Source: Schmidtea polychroa
Taxonomy: Eukaryota
NCBI GenBank assembly: GCA_044892525.1
Contig: CM097885.1
Location: forward strand, 24,616,001-24,680,000
Length of the DNA stretch: 64,000 nucleotides
Direction of reading: 5' to 3'
The position numbers and the translations under genes are program-made. The notes under the pieces are model-generated. The model saw only the letters and a list, made by a program, of their open reading frames with translations, was not told the DNA's origin and ran no database searches. Below, one piece after another: positions 6,603 through 43,523 of the stretch (its first letter is position 1; each line of letters begins with the position of its first letter).

Positions 6603-6685
6603 AAATATCCAGGAGAGATGAACATAATTTTGTGGACCAGGAACACGTACAGACTTACAATTGGATAAAAAAGGCAACCCTGTTG
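6603..6685 (+). pseudogene. Relic of a Polinton/parvovirus-type PLA2 gene
   Basis: Reads KYPGE / HNFCGPGTRTDLQLDKKGNP with a frameshift; DNA resembles 31665-31755 (aaatatccagg...tggaccaggaacacgt). Confidence 0.7.
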
Positions 6686-13326: not shown

Positions 13327-13510
13327 GCTGTAAAACGAGCTTAGAAAAAGGTGGATTTTTTATGAAAGATGAAAAATACTATTGTAAAAAGGATTATCTC
13401 GACAAGTTCGGTGTCAAATGCCAAGTATGCAACGAAACTGCTGAAGGAGAAGTCATTGTCATATTTGCAACAACATTTCATCCTAATTGCTTCAAATGCC
13501 GGAATTGTCT
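13327..13510 (+). CDS. Exon of an actin-binding LIM protein (abLIM/UNC-115-like): end of LIM1 and start of LIM2
   Basis: ttttag|...|gtgaga; CKTSLEKGGFFMKDEKYYCKKDY...CQVC...EGEVIVIFATTFHPNCFKCRNC matches the abLIM LIM pattern. Confidence 0.88.
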
Positions 13511-13544
13511 GTGAGATTTCTGTGGATTATTCATTAATTCTTGT

Positions 13545-13637
13545 TTAATAATAATAATAATAATAATAATAAAATAATAATAATAACAATAAAGTAATAA
13601 TAATAAAATAATAATAATAAAATAATAATAATAATAA

Positions 13638-13725
<88 letters not shown>
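13545..13725. repeat. (AAT)n microsatellite
   Basis: Direct reading. Confidence 0.95.
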
Positions 13726-13729
<4 letters not shown>

Positions 13730-13771
13730 TGATAAATATTCATGATTTCTTGGTAGCAGTATATTGTAAAA

Positions 13772-13934
13772 CAGGGGTTTCAAACTCAAACTGGCCTGCG
13801 GGCCGCATTAGACTAGTATTATGAGCCGGCGGGCCGCAACATAAATAATTGTTTTTCAGAACATGTGGAGTCTGAAACTCCGATGTTAATATTTATTTAA
13901 TTAAAAACTCAACAAAACTAAAAAACATTTTTTT

Positions 13935-14004
<70 letters not shown>

Positions 14005-14149
14005 TGTATAACGTCATATGTATAAATAAAAATAATTAAAAAGATAAGTTTTAATTTATACAGCCAATTATGATTTTAATTGTTAAATAAGTTTGGTTAA
14101 ATTACAAATCTATGTTTTTTCGTTGCGGGCCGCGTGTTTGAGACCCCTG
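13772..14149. mobile_element. hAT-type MITE containing an (AAT)n tract
   Basis: TIRs CAGGGGT(T/C)TCAAAC; sub-terminal GCGGGCCGC motifs; TSD TTGTAAAA / TTGTAAAT (7 of 8). Confidence 0.85.
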
Positions 14150-16578: not shown

Positions 16579-18120
16579 ATGGAAAACAGAGATGAGACAT
16601 TTATCAGTGAACTCTATGAAGACGATTTATCCGATGTGCCAAATGATTCTGAAGTTGATATTGACATGGATAGTGACGGTGATTTGTCTTCTTTCATCAC
16701 CTCGCATGCCACGCGTGTGATGCATCTTTCTTCTTCAGATGATAAAAGCGAAGATTGGACCAACAATGATATTACAAGAAATAATAATGATTTTGAAGGA
16801 GATCCTGGTGTAAAAGTGCTTCCAGAAGATGTTACAAATGTCGAAGATGTGGCCGGATTATTTATTGGAGAAAATTTATTCGAATTAATTGCCACTGAAA
16901 CTAATAAATACAGATCTCAAAATTACCACAAATATAAGGTGATATCACATACACCACCATGGATAGATGTTACAGTAAAAGAGTTAAAAAAATGGTTCGC
17001 TTTGGGAATCATTATGGGTCCGAAAAGGTGTTTTGAATGACTATTGGTCATCAAATAAATTTATTGAAACACCAATATTTGGAAAAACATTGAGCAGAAA
17101 TCGATTCAAGGATATTCTAAAGTTTCTCCATTTCAACGACAACGAGGAAATTTCACAAGATACTAATAGATTCGTAAAAGTGCAAATGATAGTGAAGTAC
17201 TTCGTGAAAAAGTTTAATGAGCTATATAAACCTAAGCAAAATCTCTCTCTGGATGAGGGAATGATCCCTTGGAGGGGTCGATTTAATTTGCGGTATACAA
17301 CCCAATGAAAATAATAAAATACGGCATATTGAATCGAATGGTATGCGAAGCGGACACCGGATACATTTGCAATTTCAAATTGTAGACAGCCGACGGATCA
17401 AATTTGTTATCTACAGTGATGTCTGTGTTGGAAAATAATTTGGATATGTGGCATCACATATTTGCCGATAATTTTTATAATAGTACTAACTTAGCCACTG
17501 AATTGCTAACAAGAAAAACACTAATTTGGCGAACACTCCGACAAAACAGAGGAATACCTGACGCTTTAAAAAATATACGTCTTTCAATTTTCGAGACAAA
17601 ATTTCAACGAAAAGGCGAAATTTTAATTCAACTCTGGAAAACTGTGAAGAAGCGAGATGTTAGTATGATATCTACCATACACAACGCCGAGCTCATGGTT
17701 ATTGGGAAGAATGACTGGATCCCAATAAAAAAACCTCGGTGCATTATTGATTATAATAATTCAATGCAAGGGGTTGATCTCGCCAACCAATATCTGTCTT
17801 ATTACTCCATATTCAGAAAAACCAAAAAATTGACGAAGAAAGTTGTTTTCTACTTGTTGAACTGTGCTTTGTTTAACGGTTTCGTGGTGTATAAAAATTG
17901 TAATCCGGCGACAAAAATTAAATTCAAAGATTTTTTATTAAACACGGCAAAAGCATGGTTGGATGATAAATCTACTGAAAAAGTAGATGAAGAACAGCTT
18001 TCTACATCTTCTGGGCAGTCCTCCAGAGTTCGTTCAGATCCAGTAGATCGAATTTCGAAGAATTCAAAGAAGCATTACCCGGTAAAAATACCGAAAGAAG
18101 TAAACAAATCACAATATTAA
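16579..18120 (+). pseudogene. Decayed piggyBac (PGBD4-like) transposase
   Basis: Acidic N-terminus, SLDEGMIPWRGR, KYGI, ADNFYNS and YNNSMQGVDLANQ across three frames; truncated; termini not found. Confidence 0.88.
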
Positions 18121-18591
18121 AGAAAGGTCGCAGCTAGCTATTTCCAATTGTAATTTCAATTCACAATGGATAAATAGAATATTATCTCAAAAACATTTAT
18201 GATCAATTATCAACGATTCCTGTGATATCAACATAGTCTGAAATAGTCTTTTCATCAGTCGAATATTTGCAATAAACAAATATCTGGTCTAAAGGATAAA
18301 ACATTAAATAAGTTATTATAATAACTTTTATTTCTTTCAATTTCACTACTGATTATTTTTTCCATTGAATTTATTAAAAAGAGTATCAACAAACATCGAT
18401 ATATTACTGATTTATAGTCTTCAAACTCTCTTTTTAATAAATTAAATAAGTTGTTTTTCCTTTAAAAATCAATAAAAGTACATTTGTTTAATGAAATACA
18501 ATATCGGAAATGCGATGATTGGATACCATAATTGCAACCATATCACAGCAATTTCAAAATTGCTAAGCTTCTCGAACCCTATTATTCATTA

Positions 18592-19490
18592 CACCAAACA
18601 CCACTGAGATACGTTCTCTATAGTGGTGGTTTGCGTGTAGAGTGATTGCTCACTCACCAATTTTATACTGATGTTGATGATAAATTGTTGTTGAGCAAAG
18701 TTGTCAGTAATTTGTTTTACGTATGTTTTACATCATGAAATTTATTTTAGCCATTTTAGAAATGGTTTTCAGGTAAGATATTAAATTTAAAGTAAATTTT
18801 AATTCTTGAATTTTGATCCATATGGATATGAGATCATTATTCAAGTTCTTAAATATTACTTTTTATCAACAATATAATTATAAATTATTTTTAATTAATT
18901 TTCAGGCTTTTTAGGAATTTTATGTCTTTTATTAAAGTATTTTGGAATTATTTCGAAAAAATGTGAGTCCGATATATTTTTAATTATAATTAATTAAATA
19001 AATAAATCAATCAATGTATTTTTTTAAAACATTTTGGGAAAAATCGCTGATTGGAATAATTTTTTAATTTTTGTAATTTTTTTTCTGAGCTCAATATGAG
19101 GGGATTCTTAAAGGAAATCAAATCTGGAGTAAAAAGATTTTGAACCAAATTCATCTGCTCTTGATATTTTCATTAAAAATATAATTTAAAAAATTTTCAA
19201 CGATCTTTTTTTTCTAAAAATTGTCTAAAGTAGAATTATTATAGAAACGTATCTCATCGTTACAATTTTACGAATCATAAGTTTGTATGTGTTTTTTATT
19301 ATGTGTTGTGCTTGTGTGCATTTTTTAATTTTCCTTCCACTTTTCAGATTTCTATAATATAAGATGTATCTCATTGAGATATAAATGAGAACATCAACAT
19401 GAAATCAAAGTAAGTATTTATGTTTCTATAATGTAAGATTATTGATTTTTTTGTTATATTATAGGAAATGCATCTCAGTGGTGTTTGGTG
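18592..19490. mobile_element. Non-autonomous TA-flanked TIR element (Tc1/mariner-like)
   Basis: TIR CACCAAACACCACTGAGAT at both ends, flanked by TA. Related full copy at 59327-60198 and partial copies near 15575 and 56130. Confidence 0.85.
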
Positions 19491-20418
19491 TAGTAACATC
19501 AATATTATAGGATCATATTTAGAATTTCAATATTAAACTGTTAGATGCAAATCTAGATATTTACGATTGAATTTAGGTTTAAAATAATCAATTATATCTA
19601 TATTTCTCAAATGTATGTGTGTGTGTCCTCCTATCCATAGCCTCAGTTTACATCCAAATTTCACCAAATTTAGCAGGCATACTTCTAATACAAAACATTG
19701 GTCAGCTGGAAATAAAATCAATATTTGCTAAAAAAATCCAATTTTGAATAAATTAGGTTTGCGGCCACTACCAAATAAGGATGTGTTAACTTGTGTAATT
19801 AAACTTGTAATATGCATCAAATATTTGTTTTGTGATCGTCCTAAATCAGAGTTAATTGAACAAAATCAATTGAAATCTAACATAATTCTGTTGCCATTCC
19901 TAAATTGGGCAATTATTGGTTATGTAACAACAATAGAAACATTTGAAGATGAACGAAATAATAGGTTATCCATATTATTTAACTTTTATCCCCTCTTCCA
20001 TTTTTTAATTTTTATCATTTAATTTTACTATATAGTAGATCTGTTAGATTATATTCGAGTAAAAAAGCTTTTCACAGCCTCCAAAAATATTCTATTGGAC
20101 TGAGTTTGAAGTCCACCGTCATATAGGAAGAATGATTTGGCAGATTTCCTCAAATAGCAATGTATTGTCATGTTTGAGATAATTAGGCTACATTTTCTGT
20201 CGGTAACTTGTCGCTATCTCTAAAGGTTTTATTAATCTATGCTTATAATATAACAAAAAACTACATTTCAGTTTACAATATCATTAAAAATGCAAATGAG
20301 ATAAGATTTATTCAAAAGCATTATTGTTAAATTAGCACTGCAAAAGCAATACCAAAAATCTGACATGTAAATGTCTTAACCCTTTTCGAAAATGCAATAT
20401 TGCTACACTGACCCTGCA

Positions 20419-28283: not shown

Positions 28284-28500
28284 TTAATTAAATAATTTCC
28301 AAATTAAATTTTGGTTTTGGGACGGCAAATTAGGTGCGGCTGCTTTGACACGTTTGTCACTTGCCATATGATGCCCTTCTCGCAACCATAATTTAACATA
28401 TGGTGTTGCATCAAAATCCTCAATCGATTTTCCCATTAAATTTATTGTCATTAAATGACTTGTTGTTTCAATTAACAACGAATTTCTCTTATCATAAATG
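28284..28500 (-). pseudogene. 3' end of the hAT transposase, separated by the Polinton insertion
   Basis: IYDKRNSLL...IWKLFN* continues in frame from ERGLSTMNNI at 43524 once the insertion is removed. Confidence 0.9.
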
Positions 28501-28771
28501 AGTAGTGTGGTTATATACCCAACCAAAACAGCCCCCCAACAAAAACATGCCTCCAAATCACTTAAGCTATAGTATTTTAGCCCTATATTTTGAAAACAAC
28601 CACCCTTAATGACTCTAACTGTTTTAATCTTTAAAGCCTCAAACTCAAAAGCTTCAAACTAAAAAGAGAATAGAAAAGAAAATGGCATTATGAAAAAGTT
28701 AGAGGGCTATTTGATCTTTATCAGATTATTGATTTTAAATTATATAAATTAAAAAATAAATGAAAAATAGT

Positions 28772-28840
28772 AAAACTGCTCTGAGGGGACAGTGGTATTT
28801 TTTTTTTTTTTTTTTCACTGTCCCCTCAACAGTTTTTTTT
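28772..28840. other. Strong hairpin in the TIR with a poly-T loop (mirror copy at about 43160-43221)
   Basis: TGAGGGGACAGTG (28782-28794) pairs with CACTGTCCCCTCA (28816-28828); outer AAAACTG/CAGTTTT; followed by a T tract. Confidence 0.85.
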
Positions 28841-29066
28841 GATCCGGATCATTTTTTTTTTATTCAACCTCTTTCGTTTATCGAATCTCTTCCAATATAC
28901 AAGCTGGTCAGGCTCATAATCAGAATCAATTCGATAATAGCAGCACACCTTATTATTCGCTTCTCGCTCGAATACGATTTCATCGGCGTTTTAAGTATGC
29001 TGCTCGAAAGTACAAATGAATTCGAAAGCGAATCCGAAAGAGGTCCGAAAACAACCGAGAAATAAA

Positions 29067-29140
29067 TGTGCACATTACCGGGATCGATCCGGGGGTGTTC
29101 GAAAGACAGGTGGCGATAATTACCGGTTCGCCACCATCAC
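29067..29140 (-). ncRNA. tRNA-derived Pol III-type cassette B (Asp-like), left TIR
   Basis: A box TGGCGAACCGG; CCTGTC at the anticodon position; T arm CCGG-ATCGATC-CCGG; T4 downstream. Confidence 0.55.
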
Positions 29141-29316
29141 CCGTTTCAATATTTTTTTTTGATATTTATGTTTAAAAAATAATTAATTAATAAAAAAATA
29201 AAATAAAATAAAATAAATAAAATAAAATATACAAGTACTTTATAAATATAAGATACCCACACTATTTTCAATATTATTTTCAAATTTTTAATATTATTTT
29301 ATGTTGAAAAAAAAAC

Positions 29317-29390
29317 TAACCTCAGATGTGATTTGAACCGCTAGCATTTTGAACCACTGTGTCAGTCTAGCCCACTGCGCCATCAAGGTT
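29317..29390 (-). ncRNA. tRNA-derived Pol III-type cassette A (Trp-like ends), left TIR
   Basis: A box TGGCGCAGTGG; B box GGTTCAAATC; AACCTT/GAGGTT terminal stem; T9 terminator. Confidence 0.65.
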
Positions 29391-29637
29391 TGGATTTTTT
29401 GTCATTTTTTAGACTATAAATAATCGATTCAAGTTCTTTAACTCTTTCCTGTAATTGTTTCATTTTCTTCAATCTTATATCAGCAACATCTACAGCCTTC
29501 ATATAAAAATGTCGATACTTTTCATTATCTACCATCAACTCTTTGATGTATTCTAATGGTTCTTCTTCTCTTCTTTTCATTCTCTTATGTTTAACTTCAT
29601 TCAATTCATTTCTCATTCTTTCTTTTAACTCATCCAT
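29383..29637 (-). CDS. Small charged coiled-coil protein of the Polinton
   Basis: 84-aa ORF with AAAAATGG start context; its stop lies inside the TIR. Confidence 0.6.
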   Translation of the reverse strand: MDELKERMRNELNEVKHKRMKRREEEPLEYIKELMVDNEKYRHFYMKAVDVADIRLKKMKQLQERVKELESIIYSLKNDKKSKP

Positions 29638-29807
29638 TTTTATAAATATTTTTTTATTGGATATATTAATTTTTGGTAGCTTAAGTTAAAACGTTTTTGA
29701 TCTTAAATTTCCAAGAGTTGCCGTTGACCAATCTCCTTAAAAATTTGTACAAGTACTAAATCAAGTATGCTGATCAATATTTCGTTAAAAAAAAATTTAA
29801 AAAAAAA

Positions 29808-29880
29808 TGACCGAAATGGGATTTGAACCCATTGGTATTGGCAATGCAGTCGAGTGCTATTACCACTAAGCTATACTCAA
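29808..29880 (-). ncRNA. tRNA-derived Pol III-type cassette C (Cys-like)
   Basis: GTATAGCTTAGTGGTAATAGCACTCGACTGCA; perfect T arm ATGGG-TTCAAAT-CCCAT; T9 terminator. Confidence 0.7.
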
Positions 29881-30041
29881 TATAAAATAAGTTGTTAATG
29901 TGTGACTATTTATTGATGAAATTAATAATTAATTATTCATTTTCTCGACAACTACCACTCAGATCCATCTGAAAATTTAAATATATACTAAAATCAGTAC
30001 GCTGAATCAGATTCCGTTGAAAAAAAAATATCGAAAAAAAT

Positions 30042-30115
30042 TGACCAAAATCGAAAATTGAACCCGGTACTCCCGGTGATAAAATTGAAGCCTATTCCCA
30101 CTCCGCTATAATGGC
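30042..30115 (-). ncRNA. tRNA-derived cassette D (degenerate paralog of C)
   Basis: A box TAGCGGAGTGG; B box GGGTTCAATT; ends GGTCA plus T7; internal T4 runs. Confidence 0.5.
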
Positions 30116-30171
30116 TTACATAATATATTTAATTAATCCTATTTTGTGTGTGTAAATTTTAATATATAAAA

Positions 30172-31458
30172 ATGAATAATATAAAAATTCAAGAAAAAAA
30201 TAAATTAAATCTTGATTATAATAAAGAATTTACTCATGAAATCAAGAAAAATGATGTACTTAAAATATCCCCTACGTCAGGATCGATTGCAAACTTAAAT
30301 CGTAGGGGTGATATAGTTTTTCAATCTCTTCAAACATCAAACCCTATAGATATTTGTAATGCCAAATTATATTATAAAATCGAATTAGAAATTGAAGCAA
30401 ACAAAGATATAACCCTAGAAAATAATTTCTTTCCAAATTTATTCTCCAACATGAGATTAAAACTAGGATCATCAGAAATTGAAACTGTTTTGCATCCGGG
30501 AGTATATTCTACAATGTTAAATTTTATTTTGACTGGTTGTGATTATAAAAACGAATATGGTGAATTAACAGGTTGGATTCCTGATGTTAATAAAGGGGAT
30601 TTAGATAAAGATGGTTTAGATGTAAACCATGGTTACCATAAAAGAGCTGAACTTTATAAATCTAAAAAATTTGAAGGTTATTTTGAATTAAAACACTTGT
30701 TTGGATTCCTTCAAAACTATAATCGTATACTTCATAATGTTTTTATAGAATTCATCTGTAATAGAGTAGAAGGTGATAAAAGATTGTTCTATGGAGCTGT
30801 AGATACAAAAGCTAAATTAAAATTATCAACACTTGAATTACATATACCTGAATGGACATTAAACCCACATTCTGAGATTAAACTCCTTGAAAGATTAAAT
30901 TCCAACAAGTCTATAAATGTAAATTATTTAAATAGAATCTGTAGTGAATTTAGTATGACAGAGGGTTCAACATATTCTATAAAGGTAGCAAATTTAGCAT
31001 ACCGACCAAGATATATCTTGATTGGATTCAAAGAAGTAGATTCATCTTTCCAAAAAAATAACAACTTGTTTATTCAAAAGATTGGAGTTGATAATTTAAA
31101 AACAATCCAAATTCAATTAAATAGTTCTTATTATCCAATAAATAGAATGGAATTTAATATTGAAAATAATGAAAACATATTCCCATATCTAAATTATATT
31201 GAAACATGTTATGATTTCAAAGTTGAACCGCAATTAAGTTTAGAAGATTTCAAAAATTTATATTCTATATTTTGTATAAATGTTTCAGACCAAGATGATC
31301 GCCTAGCCATAAATAATGTTGATGTTACACTTCATATAACAAAGGATTCTAATTTTAAAGCTAAAGTATATACATTAATATTAGAAGAAAAGAAAATAGA
31401 AATGAAATTATATGGTGGAAAGATTTCAATAATCGAAAATGTTAGGGGAGATTCTTGA
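30172..31458 (+). CDS. Major capsid protein (double jelly-roll)
   Basis: Intact 428 aa; LENNFFPNLFS...LGSSEIE and RPRYILIGF motifs; size and Polinton context. Confidence 0.82.
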   Translation: MNNIKIQEKNKLNLDYNKEFTHEIKKNDVLKISPTSGSIANLNRRGDIVFQSLQTSNPIDICNAKLYYKIELEIEANKDITLENNFFPNLFSNMRLKLGSSEIETVLHPGVYSTMLNFILTGCDYKNEYGELTGWIPDVNKGDLDKDGLDVNHGYHKRAELYKSKKFEGYFELKHLFGFLQNYNRILHNVFIEFICNRVEGDKRLFYGAVDTKAKLKLSTLELHIPEWTLNPHSEIKLLERLNSNKSINVNYLNRICSEFSMTEGSTYSIKVANLAYRPRYILIGFKEVDSSFQKNNNLFIQKIGVDNLKTIQIQLNSSYYPINRMEFNIENNENIFPYLNYIETCYDFKVEPQLSLEDFKNLYSIFCINVSDQDDRLAINNVDVTLHITKDSNFKAKVYTLILEEKKIEMKLYGGKISIIENVRGDS

Positions 31459-31487
31459 TATAATCCCTGATATTTTAACATTTTAAA

Positions 31488-31895
31488 ATGTCTCTAAATA
31501 AATATTGGAGATGTGAAAGTTGTAATTGTCAAGTTACAAGACATCATAAAGCAAGTCATTTAAAAACTAAAAAACATACAGGAGGTGATCTAATTCCACG
31601 AGCTGGAGGCGATTTGCAATCTTCAAAAACAACATCTTCAATATTAAAACCTTTTACTACAGAAAAATATCCAGGTGAAAGACATTTATTTAAACACAAC
31701 TATACTGGACCAGGAACACGTCTAGATATTAGATTAGATGAAAATAATAATCCCAAACAAGGAGAAGAACCAATAAATAGAATTGATCAAGCAGCTTTAA
31801 AACATGATATTGCTTACAATTCAACAAATCTTAGAGATAGAAATGTTGCAGATGTGAATTTAATACACGATTTAAATAATATACAAAATCCATGA
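31488..31895 (+). CDS. C2H2 zinc finger plus parvovirus-type phospholipase A2 domain (5' part of a likely fusion)
   Basis: CESC...HLKTKKH; YTGPG Ca-binding loop; DQAALKHDIAY catalytic HD. Confidence 0.88.
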   Translation: MSLNKYWRCESCNCQVTRHHKASHLKTKKHTGGDLIPRAGGDLQSSKTTSSILKPFTTEKYPGERHLFKHNYTGPGTRLDIRLDENNNPKQGEEPINRIDQAALKHDIAYNSTNLRDRNVADVNLIHDLNNIQNP

Positions 31896-31934
31896 ACTCA
31901 AGAAAAGATTCAAAGAGCTCTAGTTAAATTAGCA

Positions 31935-32897
31935 ATGAAAGGTAAGATTTTCATAGGCTTAGGACACAGTCCGATCACCATGGGTACAAGACTTCCTAGG
32001 AAAGCAAAAGATGTTGCTTATAAAAAGATTATCGAACAAGCAGAGATTGAAAGATCCCTCGGGAGTACAGCCAAGACTAGTTTACAAACCCCAACAGAAT
32101 CAGAAATAAAATATGCAAAGGAATTACACCATGAATTTAGAAAAAATAAAAAATATTTAAAAGTTCAAGTACATGAAAAAGATCAAACATGGTCTGCAGA
32201 TTTAGTCTTTATGCCCAAATCATCAGACCCTGAAAAATATAAAATAATTTTAACTGTAATAGATTTATATACAAGATTTGCTTTTGCAAGATGTTTAGAA
32301 AATAAAACAGGATATTCTATTACAGAAGCATTTGAAAATATATTTGAAGAAAATCAAAGAATCCCAAAATATTTATGGTGTGATAAAGGAACAGAATTTT
32401 ATAACAAAGTTTTTACAAAGTTTTTAAATGAAAATGATATTAAATTATATTCAACAGAAAACGAAGGAAAAGCAGTCGTAGTTGAAAGATTAAATAGAAC
32501 ATTAAAAAATAAAATGTGGAAATATTTTACTGCTATTGGAAAACAAAAATGGAACAATGAATTGTTACAAAAGATTGTAAATGAATATAATAATGATGTA
32601 CATAGTTCTATAAAATTAACACCTTTAAATGCTTCCATGAAGCCTGAAACCATTAAAGTGGTAAATATTGAAAATGATGTTATTGAAAAACCAAAGTTTA
32701 AAATTGGTGACCGAGTAAGAATATTTAAATATAAAAATAAATTTGAAAAAGGATTCACAGCAAAATGGACAAAGGAAATTTTTATTATAAATAAAATACA
32801 TTATACAACTCCAATAACATATAGCATCATTGATTTAAATAATGAAAAAATATTAGGTAGATTTTATAATAATGAACTACAGAAAACAGATTTTTAA
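31935..32897 (+). CDS. Retroviral-type (rve) DDE integrase
   Basis: WSADL, VIDLYTRFAF, CDKGTEF, VERLNRTLK and KFKIGDRVRI motifs. Confidence 0.95.
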   Translation: MKGKIFIGLGHSPITMGTRLPRKAKDVAYKKIIEQAEIERSLGSTAKTSLQTPTESEIKYAKELHHEFRKNKKYLKVQVHEKDQTWSADLVFMPKSSDPEKYKIILTVIDLYTRFAFARCLENKTGYSITEAFENIFEENQRIPKYLWCDKGTEFYNKVFTKFLNENDIKLYSTENEGKAVVVERLNRTLKNKMWKYFTAIGKQKWNNELLQKIVNEYNNDVHSSIKLTPLNASMKPETIKVVNIENDVIEKPKFKIGDRVRIFKYKNKFEKGFTAKWTKEIFIINKIHYTTPITYSIIDLNNEKILGRFYNNELQKTDF

Positions 32898-32908
32898 GTC
32901 GACAAGCC

Positions 32909-33700
32909 CTAAAACAAACTTTTCCATATTTCAGCTTCTTCTCTATCCAAATAAATATAATTATATTTTTCTTTCCAATGATTATCAACAAACATATCAA
33001 ACATATTCTTATCAGGTTCAACATTTGAAAATAAATCATTATAAATCATATTCTTATCACGGCGATCTAATTTAAAAAATATAAAACAATTGGAATTATT
33101 TCTTATTGAATTTTTATCTAAAGCATAATATGTTTGAGATATATAAATAACATTACAATTATTATGTCGACCTCGTGTAAAGTAACTCTTTTGAATCTCT
33201 TGATTTTTCATATTAACAACATCATCAAATATAACTAGATTCTTTTTATCTTTAGGAAGTAAATCACAATGTAAAACATCTTCAGGTTTATTAGAGAATA
33301 AAACTTGAATTGCCTCCTGCCCTTCTTCACAAATATAATCATTTTTATTACTAATATCTGATTCTAAAATCTTTTCCTTATACCAATCAACCATATCACA
33401 AGGTTGAAAAACTTCTTCAGGACACCTATGTTGATTTTTAAAAATATCAATTATTGCTTTTTTAGTTAATTTATTTTCAAATCCACATTTCAAAAGTTGT
33501 AATTCTGGTTGATTTATGGTTGTAGAATAAAAGATTAAATTATTATAATCTAAAAAATCATCTTCAAGTAACATTCTCAAAACAAGTACATTCTTTCCAC
33601 ATCCAGAAGAACCAACAATTAATAATCTAAAATTATCAGGAAATACTTTATTATTAAATTTACTCTTATGTCTATTTAAAATTGGTTTCCAAACATCCAT
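32909..33700 (-). CDS. A32/FtsK-like genome packaging ATPase
   Basis: Walker A GSSGCGKN, Walker B LVIFDD, RGRH motif; start taken at MDVWKP. Confidence 0.92.
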   Translation of the reverse strand: MDVWKPILNRHKSKFNNKVFPDNFRLLIVGSSGCGKNVLVLRMLLEDDFLDYNNLIFYSTTINQPELQLLKCGFENKLTKKAIIDIFKNQHRCPEEVFQPCDMVDWYKEKILESDISNKNDYICEEGQEAIQVLFSNKPEDVLHCDLLPKDKKNLVIFDDVVNMKNQEIQKSYFTRGRHNNCNVIYISQTYYALDKNSIRNNSNCFIFFKLDRRDKNMIYNDLFSNVEPDKNMFDMFVDNHWKEKYNYIYLDREEAEIWKSLF

Positions 33701-33715
33701 TTTGTTTATTATAAA

Positions 33716-34294
33716 ATGACAACTGAAGAATCTTTGCAAGAATTAATAAATTCAAATAAAATTAAATCAGTAGTAATTGATGGTAAAAAATATTTTATTG
33801 GAAAACATGTAAAAGAACAAGTTAGAGCGAAGCTCCACGAAGCTAAAGAAGGTGGCATTCTTCCATTAGCTGCTTTAATACCTGCAATCATTGCTGGTTT
33901 ATCAGGTGCTGCTGGAATAGCTGGAGGAATTGCAACTACAGTTCAAAAAGCTAAAGAATCTCAAAAGACAGACCTAGAAAAAGAAAAACTAAAAACTGAA
34001 ATCGATTCAATGAAGAAGGGAGGGCAAGCTAAAGGGGGAGTGTCCGTTGGAAAGGGTCTCTATCTTAATCCATATGAGGGGAGTCGGCAAAAGTCTCAGG
34101 GCAAAGGTCTCTATCTTAATCCTTATAAAGGTAGAGGTTTAAATGATTTTTTAAAAAATCAAATTTCTACATCTGAATCTTTATCTTCAAAAGATAAAGA
34201 AGATTTAAAAAAAATATGTAAATCTTTAAAGAATGGATGCCTTTGTAAAACTAAAAATGGTAAAGGATTATACTTGAAGCCCTTCGAACTATGA
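33716..34294 (+). CDS. Adenovirus pX-like virion core protein with GKGLYL repeats
   Basis: GGILPLAALIPAIIAGLSGAAGIA hydrophobic segment; three GKGLYL(N/K)P repeats. Confidence 0.7.
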   Translation: MTTEESLQELINSNKIKSVVIDGKKYFIGKHVKEQVRAKLHEAKEGGILPLAALIPAIIAGLSGAAGIAGGIATTVQKAKESQKTDLEKEKLKTEIDSMKKGGQAKGGVSVGKGLYLNPYEGSRQKSQGKGLYLNPYKGRGLNDFLKNQISTSESLSSKDKEDLKKICKSLKNGCLCKTKNGKGLYLKPFEL

Positions 34295-34316
34295 TACCAT
34301 TTTTGATACCATAAAA

Positions 34317-35189
34317 ATGGTATATGAAGAAAGATTAGCACTTTTAAAAAAATTACAATCAGAACAAGATAAATATAATAAAAAAGATACAACTCAACAT
34401 GCTGAATCTATAAAATTAAATGAGGTAATAACACAACAACAGGGGCCAACAATTAAAGCTATAAAAGAGTTGGAAGATTTCAATGAGCAAGCAAAATTTA
34501 AAGAGTTAGAAGATAAAAAACAAAAAATAAAAGAACTAGAGTGGCAGGATAAAGAAAAAGAATCCAGTGAAAACCATCCTGAAAGAAATCAAAGAAAACG
34601 CAGAAGAATTTCTAATGTGGAAGAAGAAGAAATGTTTTTAAAAACAAAACCTCTTAAAGTTGATCCTAAAATTAGAGATGATTTACCTCCTTCAATTAGA
34701 CCCACATTTAATACTAATACTGAAGGATATCAAATAATAACAATTAATAAACAAAACTTTACTTTATATTCAAATTCAGAAAATAAATCACGTATTCATT
34801 CACAAAATGTTTATAATAATGAATATTTAGACTTTGAATTTACAGATGATTTTTATAGATTACTTTGTGGATATTCTTCAGATGATGTTGAAGAAATTAA
34901 AAAATATTTAAATTTAATAAGATTAATAAGAGCTAGTTCTAAAGCAAAATATATTCAAGATTTAAAGAATTATTTAAATAAAAATGAAAAGGGTTATGTT
35001 GTTACAGAGGGAGAGGGTGAAGGTGGTAAACCAAATCCCATCAATCTTTTTATTGAATTAAGAAAACTATTAGCTGCAAGGAAAGCAGGACATAATAATT
35101 TAGATTCTGATATTTTAAAGATTTCTAAAGATTTGTTAAAACAAGGAATAATTTCAAAAGATAAATTTAATAAGTATACGAAGTTATAA
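34317..35189 (+). CDS. Polinton conserved hypothetical protein (possible core protein)
   Basis: Intact 290 aa; N-terminal coiled coil; GEG motif; C-terminal NPxxL...LLAARKAGHNN helix motif. Confidence 0.7.
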   Translation: MVYEERLALLKKLQSEQDKYNKKDTTQHAESIKLNEVITQQQGPTIKAIKELEDFNEQAKFKELEDKKQKIKELEWQDKEKESSENHPERNQRKRRRISNVEEEEMFLKTKPLKVDPKIRDDLPPSIRPTFNTNTEGYQIITINKQNFTLYSNSENKSRIHSQNVYNNEYLDFEFTDDFYRLLCGYSSDDVEEIKKYLNLIRLIRASSKAKYIQDLKNYLNKNEKGYVVTEGEGEGGKPNPINLFIELRKLLAARKAGHNNLDSDILKISKDLLKQGIISKDKFNKYTKL

Positions 35190-35211
35190 ATACGAAGTTT
35201 TAAAATACAAA

Positions 35212-35676
35212 ATGACTCCTTCAATATTAGATTTTTTAAAAACATTTGGAATAAATGCAAAAACAAATTTTGATTTAAAAGATTATGCAAATTATTTAAA
35301 TTTAAAAATTAAAATATTAATGAATGATGAATTATCAAGTCTGGAGAGTCCCCTGAATATAATAATCAATTATCAAAATTCAAATGAAAAAGGATCTCAT
35401 TGGGTTTGTATATATAAGAAATCTATCTACTTTGATTCTTTTGGGATTAAACCTACTAAAGAAGTTGAAGATTATCTCTTGAGGGGTTCTCCGATTGATT
35501 CCCCAAATGGTTATACTTTTAACTCTTTACAAGTTCAACCTTTGAATACTAAAATATGTGGTATTTTAAGTTTATATGTTTTGTATAGATTGAATAAGGG
35601 AGAGGGAAAGGGGCATACGCAGGATTTTGAATCTATAATTCAAGAAATTTATAATGATCTAGAATCTCTACTATAA
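35212..35676 (+). CDS. Adenain-like cysteine protease
   Basis: GSHWV, YFDSFG and Q...ICG (His-Asp-Gln-Cys). Confidence 0.92.
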   Translation: MTPSILDFLKTFGINAKTNFDLKDYANYLNLKIKILMNDELSSLESPLNIIINYQNSNEKGSHWVCIYKKSIYFDSFGIKPTKEVEDYLLRGSPIDSPNGYTFNSLQVQPLNTKICGILSLYVLYRLNKGEGKGHTQDFESIIQEIYNDLESLL

Positions 35677-35724
35677 GGATTTTTACTATAAGGATTTTTA
35701 CTATATGAATTTACTACTAAAGAA

Positions 35725-36489
35725 ATGGAGCTTCACAACCCTCCGGAAGATAATTTAAAAAAAATGGTAAACATAATGTCAGATAAATATTCAAGAACTT
35801 TATCTATAAATTCAAAAGAATCAGACTTTACTATAAACTTTCAAGATTCAATTAAATTAGATCAAAATTTAAATTATGAATTGGGGCTATTATGGTTTTG
35901 TGCTTATAATACTATTTTTAATATAACTAAAGATAATAATAAATTTACTATTCAAACTCGTGATGGGCATAAACCAGAAATTATAACAATAGAACCTGGG
36001 GCTTATGAGATAAAAGATTTAAATGATATACTTTCTAAAAAAACAAATGAAGGTATTAAAATTAAAATGGATATACCAACTTCAAAATGTGTAATGACTT
36101 TGAAGAATATAAAAATTAGTTTTTTAGATAATTGTTTCTTTCACACAGTTTTAGGATTTAAACCTATGGATATAACAATAAAAGAAGATAAAATAATAAC
36201 ATCAGAACATATTATAAAAATAATAAATACAAACACAATAAATATTCATTGCGATTGTATAACAGGTTCTTATAATAATGGTAAACAAACAAATGTTTTA
36301 TATTCCTTTCCCTCAAACACAGTTCCTATGGGATATAAAATAGTTGAAAGAATGAATCCTCCAAATTATTTACCTTTATGTAGAAAATATATAATGGATA
36401 TTAATTTTAAAATTCTTAATCAAGAAGGAGAATTGATTGATTTTAATGGAGAAGAGATTTCAATGTATTTACATTTGAAACAGGTTTGA
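35725..36489 (+). CDS. Minor capsid (penton) protein
   Basis: IEPGAY, INIHCDCI, YLPL and ILNQEGELIDFNGE...LHLK motifs. Confidence 0.85.
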   Translation: MELHNPPEDNLKKMVNIMSDKYSRTLSINSKESDFTINFQDSIKLDQNLNYELGLLWFCAYNTIFNITKDNNKFTIQTRDGHKPEIITIEPGAYEIKDLNDILSKKTNEGIKIKMDIPTSKCVMTLKNIKISFLDNCFFHTVLGFKPMDITIKEDKIITSEHIIKIINTNTINIHCDCITGSYNNGKQTNVLYSFPSNTVPMGYKIVERMNPPNYLPLCRKYIMDINFKILNQEGELIDFNGEEISMYLHLKQV

Positions 36490-36513
36490 AGATTCATTTT
36501 AAATTATTAATAA

Positions 36514-37524
36514 ATGAGTTCTTATATTCCATGTAATAGAGGTGGTGGAACAATAAAAACAGGGTTTAATACAGAAGAAATATTAACTTTAACAGAAAAT
36601 AAATATATTAATGAAAGAGGTGATTCAATGAAGAGTGATTTAATTTTAAATGGACACAAGATAAAAGAATTATCTTTTCCAACTGATGAAGCTGATGCAG
36701 TTAATAAGAAATATGTAGATGGTGTTAAAAAATATACTGATTTACCAACAACAAGAATTGAAAGTTCATTAACAACAAAAATTGATTCAATGGAATCAAA
36801 GCTTAATAATATCGAACAACGATTTAATGATAAATTTGACAAGTTACAAAGTCTGTTAACTGAACAAGTTGTAAAGTTAAATACTGCTATATTAAATTCT
36901 AAAGATAAACAAATTATGAATACTAAATTTAATATAATATATAAAATAATAAATGAGATGATTACATCATTTAATAAAAGAATTTCAAATTTAGAGTCTC
37001 GTGGAACACACATTAACACCACACATAGTATTAGAAAAAGAGCTGCTGAATTAGAACAGAATAAAACATTATTACCCCATACATATAAACATTTTATAGA
37101 ACCAAGTTTAATAACAACAAACAGTAAAGAATGGGGTGTTTTTATGGTTGTAAAAATTATTGATCCTTATTTCTTTTTGTTTGATGATGATAATGAAAGA
37201 ATGAAATGGTTTGTGAAATGTAATTATAATAGTAAGCTTGAAAAGGGTGATGTTATAATGACTAGTTATGATTTACCACACGGAGATTGGTATGTTAATA
37301 CTCATTCACATGGACTACATAAAGTTAAAAGTAAGAATATTCATTTTTCTAGTTCACTTGTACAATATATAGATTTAATATTTTATGAAAAAAAGGTTGA
37401 TGTTGATGAAGTTCGTAAAGCATTGAGAGAATTGTATAAAGATATCCTCTCAACAAGAGTTTCTTTTGATATCCGAGTATTGGTGCCAGATGGTGCTCAG
37501 AAGAATAAAGTCTTATTTTTTTAA
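36514..37524 (+). CDS. Putative fibre/spike protein
   Basis: GDSMKSDLILNGHKIKEL..P...DAVNKKYVD trimer-stalk-like motif, then coiled coil and a globular C-terminus; directly follows the penton gene. Confidence 0.55.
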   Translation: MSSYIPCNRGGGTIKTGFNTEEILTLTENKYINERGDSMKSDLILNGHKIKELSFPTDEADAVNKKYVDGVKKYTDLPTTRIESSLTTKIDSMESKLNNIEQRFNDKFDKLQSLLTEQVVKLNTAILNSKDKQIMNTKFNIIYKIINEMITSFNKRISNLESRGTHINTTHSIRKRAAELEQNKTLLPHTYKHFIEPSLITTNSKEWGVFMVVKIIDPYFFLFDDDNERMKWFVKCNYNSKLEKGDVIMTSYDLPHGDWYVNTHSHGLHKVKSKNIHFSSSLVQYIDLIFYEKKVDVDEVRKALRELYKDILSTRVSFDIRVLVPDGAQKNKVLFF

Positions 37525-37532
37525 TTATTAAA

Positions 37533-38114
37533 ATGGAAGAAGTAAGAGAAGAAAAAATTTACCCAGAATTGAGATCATCAGGATATTATTCTTCCAAGGC
37601 CTCGGCTCCCACAGAACTTGAAATTATGAGAGTAAAAGAATTTAAATCAGAAACCTTACATTTATAAGATTTATTAAAGCATTATAAAAAAATTAAAAAT
37701 AGATGGAATAAAGGGAATACAGTTTTAAAAGTTATAGGTTATTCTTTAGGATTTGCATCTGCAATATTAACAGTTATTTTACCCATAACTTAACCAGTTG
37801 TTACTCTTGCACCTGTAATACTTGGAAGTATTTCTGTGGCTGATGGTTTCTTAACTGAAATAGTTTCATTATCTTATACTTCTAAAAAGAAAAGTTTATA
37901 TAGAGAAGTTTGTTTATCAATAGAATTATTTTTATTTCAATTAAAAGCTTTGGAAGATGGAATCCTGACAGACGAAGAAATAATCAAATCAAATCAAATA
38001 ATACAAGATATAAAGAATGAGGTTATAAGATTAAAAAGGGAGGGCATGGTGGCTAATGTTATAAGTAATAAAAAAACATCTCGAGAAAAATGGTTAAAGA
38101 ATTCTTACTTATAA
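37533..38114 (+). pseudogene. Membrane-hairpin protein (adintovirus GasderminX-like) with two in-frame stops
   Basis: MEEVREEKIYPEL...ASAP, two hydrophobic helices; TAA at 37665 and 37791; in frame with the 37836 ORF. Confidence 0.7.
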
Positions 38115-38208
38115 AATGGGTGTATTTTTAAAAAAGTAGATCAGGTTGCTATAGTTGCTTAAATTAATTGTCGACATTTTATTATTAAAAAATTAAATAT
38201 CGTTGGTT

Positions 38209-41200
38209 TCAGTTATGGTTGAAAGCCAACCTATGAATCATTAATTTATGTTCTTTAAATTCTTTATCACTTAGACCTTTTATATATTCAGGATCAGTAT
38301 TAAAATATTTAAGTTCTAAACATATAGGATTAAAAACTTGAGAATATAAAGGTTTCTCGATTTCTCTCTCGGGATAAATAATTTCAACATTATAAATATC
38401 AAGATCAGTAATCTTTGTATCATATAACTTATTCAATTTTTCTAGATTTTTTATTATAGGGATTAAATTATTTCCAATAGGTAGAGTTGTCTTTAAATCA
38501 CTTAGTATGAATCTCTTATCATCATAATTTGATAATGATACTTTTTGAGATTCTATCAAGTGAATATCATGGTTTTCACTTTTAAGTTGATGTATTTCAT
38601 CAATTTTATCTTTATGATTTGGATTCAATGTATCTATATAATCTTGATGAGAAAGATTCTTTGCAACCACTCTCTGTATTCCTTTACATCTGTTATCCTT
38701 TACAGGTTTTTCTTCTTGTCCCTCTGGTCCTTTAGGAAATATAGGATATCTATGTGTAATGGTTTCTTCTGTTTCTGGAGTTTTAAATATAAATGATCTA
38801 GTTATAAATTCAGGGTTTCTAAATGTTTCGTATGAATATTGTTTAGCACGAATAAATATTCCATTTTCTATAGGAGTAAAAGGTTTTTCATCTTTAAACG
38901 AAAATAGTTCTCCAGATGAATTTATTAAATTTGAAAGTATAGGATTTTCTTTCATATCTTTTTGTAAATCATGAGTTCTTATTGTTAAAAACATTGAATC
39001 TGTATCCATTGCATGCATTGATATATTTGCTCCGTATATAGGTTGTAAGATGTTATAATATGTTTCATACATTTGTAATTTTGAAAGTTCTAAAATTGTA
39101 AACCCTATAAATATTGGTTTGTTATATGTTTTCTCATAATTTTTTAATTCTACTGCAGTAAGATTTTCAGAAAATACTTGTGCGTTTTTAAATGTAGGCT
39201 TTCCTAGCATGCGATTATAACGCTTAATATCTTTGGTAGTATTTGTTAGGAGTTCAATATGAGTATATTTATCAACATTCTCCATTGTTTTCCCAAAGAC
39301 TGAATTGTTTAAAATTTTATAATTATTATCTTTAAAAAGATTACCTTCTCTTTTTGCAATGTTTCGGCACCTAATGTTCTCCTCGATAAAAGCTTTCATG
39401 AATGGAGCTTGTTTAAATCTTATGACACTATGAACTTTTTTTAATATCATACCTCGTGAAAGATAAAATTGGAGGAGTCTATAGTGACAAAGATAAAACC
39501 TTCGATCTGTTTGATCACAAAGAAGTTTCATTGTTGGAGGTTTATCTTGTGAGATTTGCCATTCAGAAAGTTCGTTGATATCAATCTTTCTTCTTATGGG
39601 AGCTAAAGGAAAATATCTTGTTCCTGATTTTATATCATCTGGATAGTCGAGGTCGCATTCTATAAAGTAACCTATTGGAGAATCTTTCGATGTTGAAAGT
39701 ATTTCTTTCATAAGGTCATCTGTTGGGTTCTCTATTTCAGTGAAATCACCCATTGGTAAAAATTGAGTCATAATTCCTGAATATAAAGCTGTTGCATCTA
39801 TATAAAGTATAAATATAGGATTTTTCATTGTTTCTAATAATTCTTTTAATTCCTAATTGTTAATTTTCATATATGGATCATCAGGGTGTTTAGATAGTCT
39901 TCGGCTAGTAGTTATTGCATTTCTAGCTTTTATTTCTCTATTCCCCATTACTGAAGAGACTCCTCCTCTAATGTTTGTTTTAATTTGGTTAAACATATCG
40001 AGGTTAGTTAAAAGATCTATAATTTTATCACCTTCTTCTATATTTGAAGTCCAAATGGTATATAACATAGTATCCCAAGCTAAAGAGGGTGCAGTTATAT
40101 AATTATAAGGTTTAAGAACAAAAGAGTTTGTAAATTCTTCAAAGCAATCTGCTAGAATATAAACATCCAAGGATAAATACATACTTGTATATTCTCCTAA
40201 AGTTTTACACTTGAATAATTCCCACATTTTTAATGCTCGAGAATATTCTTGATTTGTAATATGATTTTTTTGAAGTTGTGAATAGAAATCTTCTTGGCTA
40301 GGAAGACTTGTTTCATTATATCTTTCAAACGAGTCAACATAGTCATAAGGATATATTCCTTTTGCTAAACATGTAGGATATTCTTCTAGAGGAATATTAT
40401 TTTTTTCCAAGAATTCTCGAGTGATTTTAAAATTTTCTGGTTTCATTGTTTTTGCTACTGCATCTAAAGACATTTGGAGAAAGTTTAACGAGTCTATAAA
40501 TTTTAATTTTCCATATTCAATTGATTTATATTTTTCCTTTGTTAAGCCGATAACTTTGAAAGAGTTTTTAGCATTTGCTGCGAGGTGTTTAATAAATAGA
40601 TGTATGTCATATCCAAAAAGATTATGAAATATAACAGGTATAAATTTAGGAGTATGGCAAATAAGATTGCAATTTTTATGAGCTGCTCGTCGATAATTAT
40701 TTTCCTTTTTTAAATGATCATGATCTATAACTTTTTCATCAGGAAGAATATTCTGTTTACACATCCAACAGTTGGAAGTATTTTCATATTCTTGTTGTTG
40801 TTGATTAGAAATATTTTGAGGATACTTTGTTTTTAATATTTTAAATATTTCATGTTCTAGATCATTTATATTTTTAGTAAAATGATTCAAGACTTCTTCA
40901 GGGGTACCTCCTAGAATTGAATATTCTCTAGATTCTATGAGTTCAGGATAATTACTTTTAAATAATAATTTATAAGCAGATGGTAATTGTTTAGTTTTTT
41001 TAACACTATTAGGTTTATTTCTTTTTCTTAGAAAGGCTTTCATCCTCTCTGGTTTCATCTTCTCTCCTGAGGAGTTCCATAAATCCATGAGTTTATTTTT
41101 TTCTATTATTTTTAAATATTGATAAACCAAATCTTGTTTATGGTTTATAGATTCAAAGTCACCATAAAGAACTCCAACTGTTTGTAGTAAATTTGAAAAG

Positions 41201-42495
41201 TTTTTAAAATACATCTTGGGACTATTAGGCATTTTAATTAAAGCTGGATCATCTTTTTCACAAAATCTTGTATGTTTAATCATAGAGTTTTTAGTTGTTG
41301 AATAATGAAGACATCTTTTACATGTTCCTCCTCCACTAGTTGGATTCTCTGGAGATGTAAAAGCTTGAAAGTTTTTTATTAAAACATAATGTTGATTATT
41401 TTCTTGTTCCAAGATTAAAAGATATATCTCGTTGTCCTGTGCTCCGTTATCCTTGGTTCCACTATCTGAAATATAAATTGGAATAATTTCTTTCCCTATA
41501 ACATGTTCATAAATATTAAGTTTAAGATTATTTAATTTTTCAAATTCTGGAATGTCTTCTAGTTTCATTGGGTGTTTGAATCCTTTGGGAAATATTAATT
41601 CATTTTCATATTGTTTGTATTTTGAAACTCTTTGGGGATTTGTTGCTTGAGGATGTAAATGTGCAAGTATTGACCAGATGAAACATTTGTTATCATTATT
41701 CTGTACATTTATAACATTTTTAGATTTAAAGGGTGTAGGAATATAAGATTTAGGATTGGGTGGTAATCCTCTCCAATAATCAATCACTAAAGTTTGGAAA
41801 GAGTTGAATACTAAGTTTGAATCTCCTAATTCATTTTCTACTTCCTCTTGTTTTGCTTCTGCTGCTTTAATTATTTCTTTGATGGTTTTATCAAATCCTT
41901 TAATTGAAAATAAATATTTAAAAGGTATTCCAATTTCAACATCTAAGGGTGTTGTCTTTTCTTCTGCTCCTCGCCAGTATTTTGCTTTGATTATAATTTT
42001 ATATTTTATAACATTATACCTTGTCGGTTTATAATTTTTTAAAGCTTCAGTGAAAGAATTTTTAATATTTTTATTTATATATTCTCCAGGAGTTGCAGGC
42101 CCATTAATTTTTAATTGAAATTCATCTATATGATTAAAATTATCCCAGTTATATTTTTCTCTTTCAACATGATCAGGTTCTCCTTCTGAATGACATTCCT
42201 CATCGTCAGAATTTTGTTTTTTATTTTTACATTCTTTTATATGTTCTAAATAATAGAAATTTAGTTTTGTTGAAAAGTTACAATGAGGACATGTAAATAT
42301 TTCTCTATTTTTCCCGATACAATTTTCAAAATGTTTATTATATCCAGAATGTAGAAATCTTCCTTTACATTTAAGACAAAGTTTTGAATTTGTATCATTA
42401 AGATTATTTTCTTTTAATAAATGAGCTTTCGATTTTAAGTGAGAAATTAATCCAGTTTTATTTTTAAAAACTTTATTGCAAATATTACAATTCAT
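38209..42495 (-). pseudogene. Protein-primed family B DNA polymerase (pPolB) with one in-frame TAG
   Basis: N-terminal zinc fingers; YGDFES, FHNLFGYD and DVYILAD exonuclease motifs; EndoVII-like DHDH insert; YIDATALY, KILNNSVFGK and DTDS. TAG at 39855-39853, then ELKELLET in frame to the second ORF. Confidence 0.95.
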
Positions 42496-42600
42496 TTTTA
42501 GAAAAAAATTTTTTATTGGATACCCTGTTTTCATTTTATTTTTTAAGATTTATATTATTCATTTTTTATAATAAAAATTTAAAAAATGACAAAAAATCCA

Positions 42601-42674
42601 AACCTTGATGGCGCAGTGGGCTAGACTGACACAGTGGTTCAAAATGCTAGCGGTTCAAATCACATCTGAGGTTA
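42601..42674 (+). ncRNA. tRNA-derived cassette A, right TIR copy
   Basis: Identical to 29317-29390; T9 at 42676-42684. Confidence 0.65.
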
Positions 42675-42850
42675 GTTTTTTTTTCAACATAAAATAATAT
42701 TAAAAATTTGAAAATAATATTGAAAATAGTGTGGGTATCTTATATTTATAAAGTACTTGTATATTTTATTTTATTTATTTTATTTTATTTTATTTTTTTA
42801 TTAATTAATTATTTTTTAAACATAAATATCAAAAAAAAATATTGAAACGG

Positions 42851-42924
42851 GTGATGGTGGCGAACCGGTAATTATCGCCACCTGTCTTTCGAACACCCCC
42901 GGATCGATCCCGGTAATGTGCACA
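42851..42924 (+). ncRNA. tRNA-derived cassette B, right TIR copy
   Basis: Identical to 29067-29140; T4 at 42940-42943. Confidence 0.55.
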
Positions 42925-43523
42925 TTTATTTCTCGGTTGTTTTCGGACCTCTTTCGGATTCGCTTTCGAATTCATTTGTACTTTCGAGCAGCACACTTAA
43001 AACGCCGATGAAAACGTATTCGAGCGAGAAGCGAATAATAAGGTGTGCTGCTATTATCGGATTGATTCTGATGTATGAGTCTGGCCAGCTTGTATATTGG
43101 AAGAGATTCGATAAACGAAAGAGGTTGATAAATAAAAAAAATGATCCGGATCAAAAAAAGCTGTTGAGGGGACAGTGAAAAAAAAAAAAAAAAAATACCA
43201 CTGTCCCCTCAGAGCAGTTTTACTATTTTTCATTTATTTTTTAATTTATATAATTTAAAATCAATAATCTGATAAAGATCAAATAGCCCTCTAACTTTTT
43301 CATAATGCCATTTTCTTTTCTATTCTCTTTTTAGTTTGAAGCTTTTGAGTTTGAGGCTTTAAAGATTAAAACAGTTAGAGTCATTAAGGGTGGTTGTTTT
43401 CAAAATATAGGGTTAAAATACTATAAAAGTATAAGTTTTAGGTTGTTTTTCTAATAGCTTAAGTGATTTGGAGGCATGTTTTTGTTGGGGGGCTGTTTTG
43501 GTTGGGTATATAACCACACTACT

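Follow-up and report, generated by a model that had tools for sequence, protein, structure and literature searches.

tRNA-derived units in two layers at the ends of a Polinton: a possible Pol III module in an accessory slot

Why should the ends of a Polinton carry units that keep the internal promoter of a tRNA gene and not its fold, where did such units come from, and could they do anything for the element? The window in which this question arises, a stretch of 64,000 nucleotides, holds one Polinton with six of them. The reading that we prefer, with a probability of about one half, is that the Polinton end is an accessory slot in which tRNA-derived type-2 Pol III promoter units have gathered in two layers, that is, a TMER/VA-like RNA gene (unit A), whose transcription by Pol III we infer, together with units of a promoter-type DNA nature. 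The units are real, family-wide and partly explained, and in this reading they would work like the TMER/VA-type Pol III modules of viruses.

The Polinton and its six units

The element is bounded by AGTAGT and ACTACT, has TIRs of about 920 bp, and is flanked by a 6-bp target duplication read from the sequence (28495-28500 and 43524-43529). Long TIRs starting with AGT, the 6-bp duplication, and a gene set of type B polymerase, rve integrase, packaging ATPase and jelly-roll capsid are those of a Polinton/Maverick; the corresponding Pfam matches are double jelly-roll, PLA2-like, rve integrase, A32 ATPase and DNA_pol_B_2, and the polymerase region of this copy is split over two ORFs. The PLA2-like gene (PF08398, 31488-31895) is listed as a feature of the alpha-type adintovirus virion module in the accessible part of the adintovirus paper (PMC8502044). 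The insertion site is a hAT-like transposase region (43523-45477, with a weak DUF659 match at 44284-45477), and pieces of a piggyBac-like transposase are found elsewhere in the window (10556-11374 and 17419-18120). In one sibling copy, the TIR is interrupted by a 28S rRNA fragment (L024:1000-1500). The features that concern us here are as follows.

28501..43523, no strand assigned: Polinton/Maverick element of 15,023 bp, recognized by its Pfam set, ends and target duplication
28501..29422, no strand assigned: left TIR, with its partner at 42569-43523; arms 98-99% complementary
29067..29140, minus strand: unit A, a tRNA-like head with box A and a GWTC-type box B; first T4 at 29048-29051
29317..29390, minus strand: unit B, tRNA-like, with two box-B-like motifs and a T9 run
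29383..29637, minus strand: 84-aa ORF lying between the captured piece and unit B; its reading frame is open in 50 of the 59 loci that gave a match
29808..29880, minus strand: unit C, Cys-like, a spacer subrepeat with T-arm and D-stem kept
30042..30115, minus strand: unit D, a paralogue of C and a spacer subrepeat, with a defective box B
30172..31458, plus strand: major capsid protein gene (PF21738, E 5.6e-26)
42601..42674, plus strand: unit B', in the right TIR
42851..42924, plus strand: unit A', in the right TIR, with the same structured body behind it as unit A

The 84-aa ORF matched no Pfam family, and it is lost in A-B-C-D variants such as L188-L190.

The first-pass annotation had put six outward-pointing cassettes at these places, and the sequence agrees with it in every position and direction. 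It had also given each of them tRNA-spaced A and B boxes and a T tract. The spacing stands, since the gap from box A to box B is 43-44 nt in all six; the rest needs correction, because in unit D a T replaces the conserved C of box B, and behind unit A there is no long T tract directly but a first T4 about 15 nt away. Units B, C and D are followed directly by runs of T7-T9. Thus, with the boxes as we take them to be defined, A, B and C have the box spacing of a type-2 Pol III gene, D is without the box-B C, and all four have the T-run terminator of such a gene. A relaxed pattern of box A, box B and T-run, which was relaxed after the units had been seen (a first strict pattern found three of the six), matches six places in the window, exactly the six units, all of them within the 15-kb Polinton. 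Four of the matches are in the left end of 1,671 nt, for which 1,000 dinucleotide shuffles average 0.005; shuffled whole windows average 0.13 matches (30 shuffles).

Are these units tRNA genes? ARAGORN with default settings found no tRNA among them. With the Rfam tRNA model only unit C comes near the cut-off (26.7 bits against 29), in line with the pseudogene-level scores that the annotation had expected; a C allele reaches 32-33 bits in 3 of the 14 loci scanned. In the Rfam alignment of unit C, the anticodon and acceptor stems are broken while the T-arm and D-stem are kept, and in unit A an 8-bp hairpin spans the D-arm region. With no ARAGORN match, broken stems in C, and predicted folds in which no unit gives a working tRNA, i.e., a cloverleaf with paired acceptor and anticodon stems, the possibility of working tRNAs was rejected.

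From which tRNAs, then, do the units derive? The host comparison set consists of seven types from tandem arrays (Lys, two Arg, Cys, Trp, Asp and Gly), and three further host tRNA loci added no new type to it. Against this set, unit C is closest to Cys (48/72, z 8.2), unit B is Trp-like (49/72, z 6.6), and unit A is weakly Asp-like, this being the best of the seven (43/72, z 4.0); unit D is closest to unit C (z 7.3). Of the earlier assignments, Cys for the unit at 29808 is sustained, and those of Trp and Asp had been exchanged, as the unit at 29317 is the Trp-like one and that at 29067 the weakly Asp-like one. Even so, a firm Trp or Asp ancestry is not upheld, because these labels are weak and only seven host types were compared. 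The T-arm of unit A may resemble that of tRNA-Ala. Units B, C and D can be aligned with one another without gaps, and the same is true when unit E of the host rDNA spacer and a satellite unit are added, with the boxes kept and the stems eroded. Three other alleles of B score 52-63 against C/D and 30-43 against Trp, so on these alignments the Trp label of unit B depends on the allele. Since the alignment is gapless and these alleles score higher against C/D, units B, C and D are most readily grouped into a single family derived from tRNA; four units are present as had been described, and their supposedly unrelated origins are not borne out. The general description of tRNA-derived look-alikes of type-2 promoters that belong to the element family is supported. 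As for the host, its tRNA genes lie in very large tandem arrays with periods of 278-424 bp (L031, L054, L061, L070 and L073), and pattern matches number 991 of the Cys type, 855 of the Trp type and 4,108 of the Asp/Glu type.

Units that have lost the fold of a tRNA might act on DNA level only, as extra-TFIIIC or barrier sites or as a help for Pol II promoters, without any meaningful RNA. tDNAs are known for barrier activity. Unit D starts 57 nt from the capsid ATG and unit B' 67 nt from where the ORF of the polymerase region begins, both head to head, B has two box-B motifs, and the spacing of the units resembles that of host tRNA arrays (278-284 bp for Arg, Cys and Trp); like the missing tRNA fold of B, C and D, these points are in favor of a DNA-level role. 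The structured body behind unit A, described below, would then be the 3′ end of an outward Pol II transcript, as the AATAAA at its A-run may suggest, or a DNA structure for replication or packaging. Box A and the T-run terminators are, however, kept as well as box B, and the head of A with its first T4 is nearly invariant, which argues against this role as the sole one. We regard it as rather unlikely.

Distribution in the family and origin of the two layers

The genome searched is 781 Mb in 1,012 contigs. In it, a 27-nt core of unit A has 3,057 matches, unit B has 2,945 and unit C 3,256, and reversed controls have none. Thirty A sites were sampled by position, and every one is at a Polinton end: 12 are right ends, 11 left ends with C/D, six left ends without them, and one is unreadable, C/D thus being found in 11 of 17 readable left ends. 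In samples, which are not a full census, the listed B sites mostly pair with A sites, and C is found in Polintons and in rDNA. All four units are present in each of the 29 closest siblings, which were chosen for matching the whole left end. Could the units be later SINE insertions? The first-pass annotation had named host SINEs, flanked by target duplications and absent from sibling Polintons, as the finding that would overturn it, and had asked for stand-alone copies to be sought. Because no target duplications surround the units, 29 of 29 siblings have them and 30 of 30 A sites are at Polinton ends, later SINE insertions were rejected; the samples held no dispersed stand-alone copies with target duplications, which are the mark of a tRNA-derived SINE.

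It is to be noted that the module does not accompany every copy of the element. A distant capsid query yielded 30 loci, whose capsids are 91-98% identical to that of the window. Units are carried by 22 of them, in varying sets, and the other eight, whose capsids are 91-95% identical, have no unit in the 1.5 kb upstream, six of these having a short end directly before the capsid gene. Therefore, the module is heritable but accessory, and the element spreads without it as well. The sets seen are A, A-B, A-B-B and A-B-C-D. In two copies (L088 and L094), the A-B module lies between 18-bp direct repeats beside the short end, and related copies carry the short end alone (L102); such repeats are expected of gain or loss by recombination. 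One rearranged end has 42 bp of the spacer-derived flank of C outside a truncated A-body (L092:1030-1071) and a unit B without one box-B motif. Beyond this family, other Polinton families in 200 kb of contig C1 have no unit of their own, the one extra match being spacer unit E. Viral contigs contain no capsid relative and no match to the A core, and no unit was found in 15 metagenome relatives, none of which demonstrably reaches a terminus. Rfam gave no family for the left end of any of 13 relatives. A metagenomic Polinton relative with a capsid 50% identical has a long internal hairpin (L197:3810-3889, z -8.7), which scores 48.6 bits against Rfam mir-754, whose cut-off is 84.

Units A and B are the older core of the TIR and are copied to both ends. 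Unit B occurs as 48 distinct alleles in 87 matches, built of reassorting blocks, and some copies have a tandem B-B. Its shared variants fall on 2 of 22 columns in the boxes versus 24 of 52 outside (p=0.003), and these two leave the motif intact, one being within the A/G degeneracy of box A and the other just outside the box-B core. Two box-B-like motifs are seen in 83 of 90 B units, with the distal one at 42-44 nt, and this spacing is retained in nearly all. In unit A, the boxes do not differ in variability from the rest (p=0.72), as its 5′ part is conserved throughout; the first T4 behind it is identical in 84 of 84 matched copies. An origin of A or B from the rDNA spacer was rejected, since neither has a close match in the two rDNA units tested (local scores ≤39).

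The origin of units C and D is a different one, and it is given by the following piece.

29673..30160, no strand assigned: captured piece of rDNA intergenic spacer, 488 bp, just upstream of the capsid start codon

The host rDNA intergenic spacer contains tRNA-like subrepeats to which this piece is 92-94% identical. They form an array with a period of 243 bp in the order E-D-C-C(-C), at 2.9-3.8 kb upstream from the 18S start, with the units running antisense to the rRNA that Pol I makes. The array is present in six of the seven spacers examined (C1, two of C2, C21, C115 and C202); it is partly deleted in both C2 spacers and missing from one C97 unit. Being in tandem between the 28S end and the 18S start and homogenized across units, with only 0-1.7% difference among spacer copies, C and D have the properties of spacer subrepeats. 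In six Polinton copies the sequence continues over the site uninterrupted, the 488 bp being absent, and a DNA-like run, one of four runs seen as assembled contigs only (the other three are guessed to be RNA), has joints skipping 487-488 nt at the same site. The filled left junction occurs at no fewer than 576 places in the genome. As precisely this piece is absent from sister Polintons, and its junction is common to at least 576 copies, it was captured. Over 283 nt, the Polinton copies differ by 0.3-2.5% among themselves, by 3.2-5.2% from the spacer and by 15-18% from the satellite, and the satellite unit runs on into the spacer flank past the junction of the Polinton. From these distances and the satellite flank, the simplest order, drawn with no outgroup species for the root, is that the units were first in the spacer, and that C and D entered the Polinton later by one 488-bp capture, which placed them at the capsid promoter. 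Within the element, C and D (0.0015 and 0.0044 substitutions per site) are not clearly more conserved than the spacer DNA between them (0.0042). The earlier view of C and D as part of the Polinton's own module is not supported in that form: they are captured host rDNA spacer, occur in a part of the readable left ends, and show no clear extra conservation. The spacer array itself (C115, L143:7410-8470; also L145, L147, L149, L153 and L154) holds E, D and two or three C, and sits between two inverted stretches of about 250 bp that are 69% alike; a 9-bp direct repeat bounds the 2.6 kb missing from the C97 rDNA unit.

Is it then possible that all the units are passengers, i.e., captured host DNA that hitchhikes in a recombination-prone end and does nothing for the element? 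Capture is certain for C/D and would be an older event for B/A, with the conservation of the boxes inherited from the spacer. The absence of the module from 8 of 30 close relatives, the varying number of units, the A-B module between direct repeats in two copies, and C/D without clear extra constraint are all as passengers would have it, and so is the box B of unit D, which is defective yet unchanged. On the other hand, B has diversified into its 48 alleles inside the Polinton with the boxes spared, the body behind A has strand-specific variants that keep its pairs, and nothing in the spacers examined closely matches A or B. This explanation seems somewhat unlikely to us for the array as a whole.

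The structured body behind unit A

Unit A differs from the other units in what follows it, a TMER-like structured part of which the first-pass annotation made no mention.

28862..29066, minus strand: structured body, a multibranch fold of about 200 nt with a 10-bp closing stem; fold z -3.7
about 28878-28937, minus strand: pre-miRNA-like hairpin of 60 nt; z -4.9
28852..28861, minus strand: A-run ending the structured body; the genomic run is 3-15 nt in 75 copies
28770..28840, minus strand: outer hairpin with an A-rich loop, then T4 at 28772-28775; z -10.2 versus 200 shuffles

Probably, as judged from these predicted folds, unit A is the head of a structured RNA. The layout resembles that of TMERs: behind A the hairpin and the body fold and keep their pairs; the head, on the other hand, is not a cloverleaf. 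Outer parts of the TIR vary strongly (69-95%), and the body is mostly at 92-98%. Of 12 variants of the body that recur in at least three copies, 10 leave the predicted pairing intact, against 6 of the 19 singletons (p=0.009); most shared ones are one-sided changes between G-C or A-U and G-U, which are valid only on the outward strand. The test uses the fold of the window's own copy, counts related copies and includes just one double-sided change, and the keeping of pairs is therefore moderate evidence. The outer hairpin is a candidate for the final terminator of a read-through RNA, or else for a DNA hairpin. The body matches no Rfam family at its cut-off, and no Rfam miRNA at cut-off.

In two guessed-RNA runs, both belonging to one study, there are contigs that extend over A and the body and stop at the A-run, with T16 and T19 on the plus strand, longer than any of the 75 genomic runs. 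As a weak hint, such ends fit an outward RNA, tailed or primed at the A-run; the same end would result from an mRNA for the 84-aa ORF or from oligo-dT priming on such an mRNA. Summed contig depth in X1/X2 is 1,600-19,900 over A and the body, and 224-909 and 0-223 over the capsid gene, values that cannot rank the parts; in the DNA-like run it is flat, and contig depth was not counted as evidence. That unit C has no contig cover in the three guessed-RNA runs carries no weight either.

A tRNA head, an unrelated body and an A-rich tail are also what we take to be the layout of a SINE. Might A, the body and the A-run go back to an ancient SINE, or to a Pol III ncRNA gene of the host, acquired by the Polinton and transcribed to this day without further significance? 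The 27-nt pattern would miss a diverged host gene present in one copy, whereas the 30 sampled A sites all lie at Polinton ends, no target duplication surrounds the A-body, and no Rfam family is matched. tRNA-derived SINEs share with unit A the head with boxes, the body and the A-rich end; they differ in that the samples have neither target duplications nor stand-alone copies, and the units spread by Polinton transposition and rDNA homogenization. We consider this origin very improbable.

How the module may work, and its relation to known systems

How could the accessory slot serve the element? In the preferred reading, host TFIIIC would bind the intact boxes of A, B and C and recruit TFIIIB and Pol III for outward transcription. 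Unit A would give an RNA of about 95 nt ending at the first T4, and read-through from it an RNA of 290-380 nt carrying the pre-miRNA-like hairpin; the RNA of A would most likely be a small-RNA source, or a decoy for the host small-RNA machinery. Units B and C, in which tRNA folding is lost and the boxes and their spacing are kept, would most likely be DNA elements, namely factor-bound, nucleosome-spaced sites about 235-250 bp apart that hold the end and the capsid and polymerase promoters open, and unit D is probably a passenger. The anti-silencing or insulating function put forward in the first-pass annotation is conjectural in the same way. Planarian Polintons are described as piRNA-silenced targets of piRNAs and H3K9me3 in the available part of the source (PMC8532177), which would provide a motive for the module if the host is a planarian.

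It is also conceivable, although we find it quite doubtful, that the ends are dressed as host Pol III/rDNA chromatin, in addition to the TMER-like RNA of unit A, and that the spacer array is a Pol III element regulating rDNA. TFIIIC-binding units taken from the spacer would then keep the promoters open or tether the element to the nucleolus, ends that are open or tethered would resist piRNA-guided heterochromatin, and the RNA of unit A would be the Polinton counterpart of adenovirus VA RNA. VA RNAs and EBERs have roles through the binding of PKR, Dicer or La.

Viral Pol III RNAs are already known from adenoviruses and herpesviruses, and working tRNAs from Polinton-like viruses. What would be new, if the accessory-slot reading is true, is a promoter-only, tRNA-derived TIR module with a TMER-like body, which would extend the Pol III strategy to Polintons and offer a way to study how Polintons can remain abundant in the face of small-RNA silencing. 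As far as the accessible text describes them, the TMERs of MHV68 begin with a tRNA-like part, which contains an internal promoter of type 2 and a triplicated, overlapping A box, and continue into miRNA hairpins, and the Pol III promoters of VA1 and EBERs, likewise on DNA viruses, are also of type 2 (PMC8223928). Unit A with its body has a layout like that of TMERs, without any sequence relation being claimed; unlike them, it has no cloverleaf, lies in both TIRs of an integrated Polinton and has about 3,000 copies, and its hairpin is a candidate miRNA precursor. VA RNAs and EBERs share with it the type-2 promoter on a DNA virus and a structured RNA, but they are internal, whereas the Polinton units are terminal and duplicated, in a clear tRNA register. 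A collection of PLVs and virophages has 558 Rfam tRNA matches and cryptophyte PLVs have 10 by ARAGORN, which are read as working tRNAs for codon compensation in the part of the report available (PMC12220804). These are tRNA-related sequences in the same virus class; the Polinton units differ in failing ARAGORN, in keeping promoters and not structure, and in lying in a TIR. In the accessible part of the adintovirus paper, tRNA comes up a single time, in a figure legend dealing with other viruses (PMC8502044). In the literature searched, no tRNA-like TIR units are described in animal Polintons, nor are tRNA-derived rDNA spacer subrepeats or their capture by Polintons, and six short motifs of the units occur in no paper searched.

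The capture represents a clean, datable transfer of DNA from the rDNA spacer to a virus-like element, and because filled and empty copies exist in one genome, chromatin data already at hand should show what effect the captured units have. In addition, it brings to light that the rDNA spacer of an animal contains an array of tRNA origin, running antisense to Pol I. Like known subrepeats and satellites of rDNA spacers, C and D are repeated, with their period of 243 bp, and a 1,245-bp satellite is derived from the array as well; they differ from such subrepeats in that they derive from tRNA, contain box-A/box-B units and run opposite to Pol I transcription, and in having been captured by a virus-like element. 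In the satellite, a macrosatellite, a diverged C-like unit is joined to spacer flank, and the boxes are kept in most copies (L117 and L136). Another stretch (L128:1001-3160) has spacer unit E (88%), short repeats and a 3′ piece of 28S (99-100%) before the genes of another Polinton family, among which is an ORF that is TBP-like by eye.
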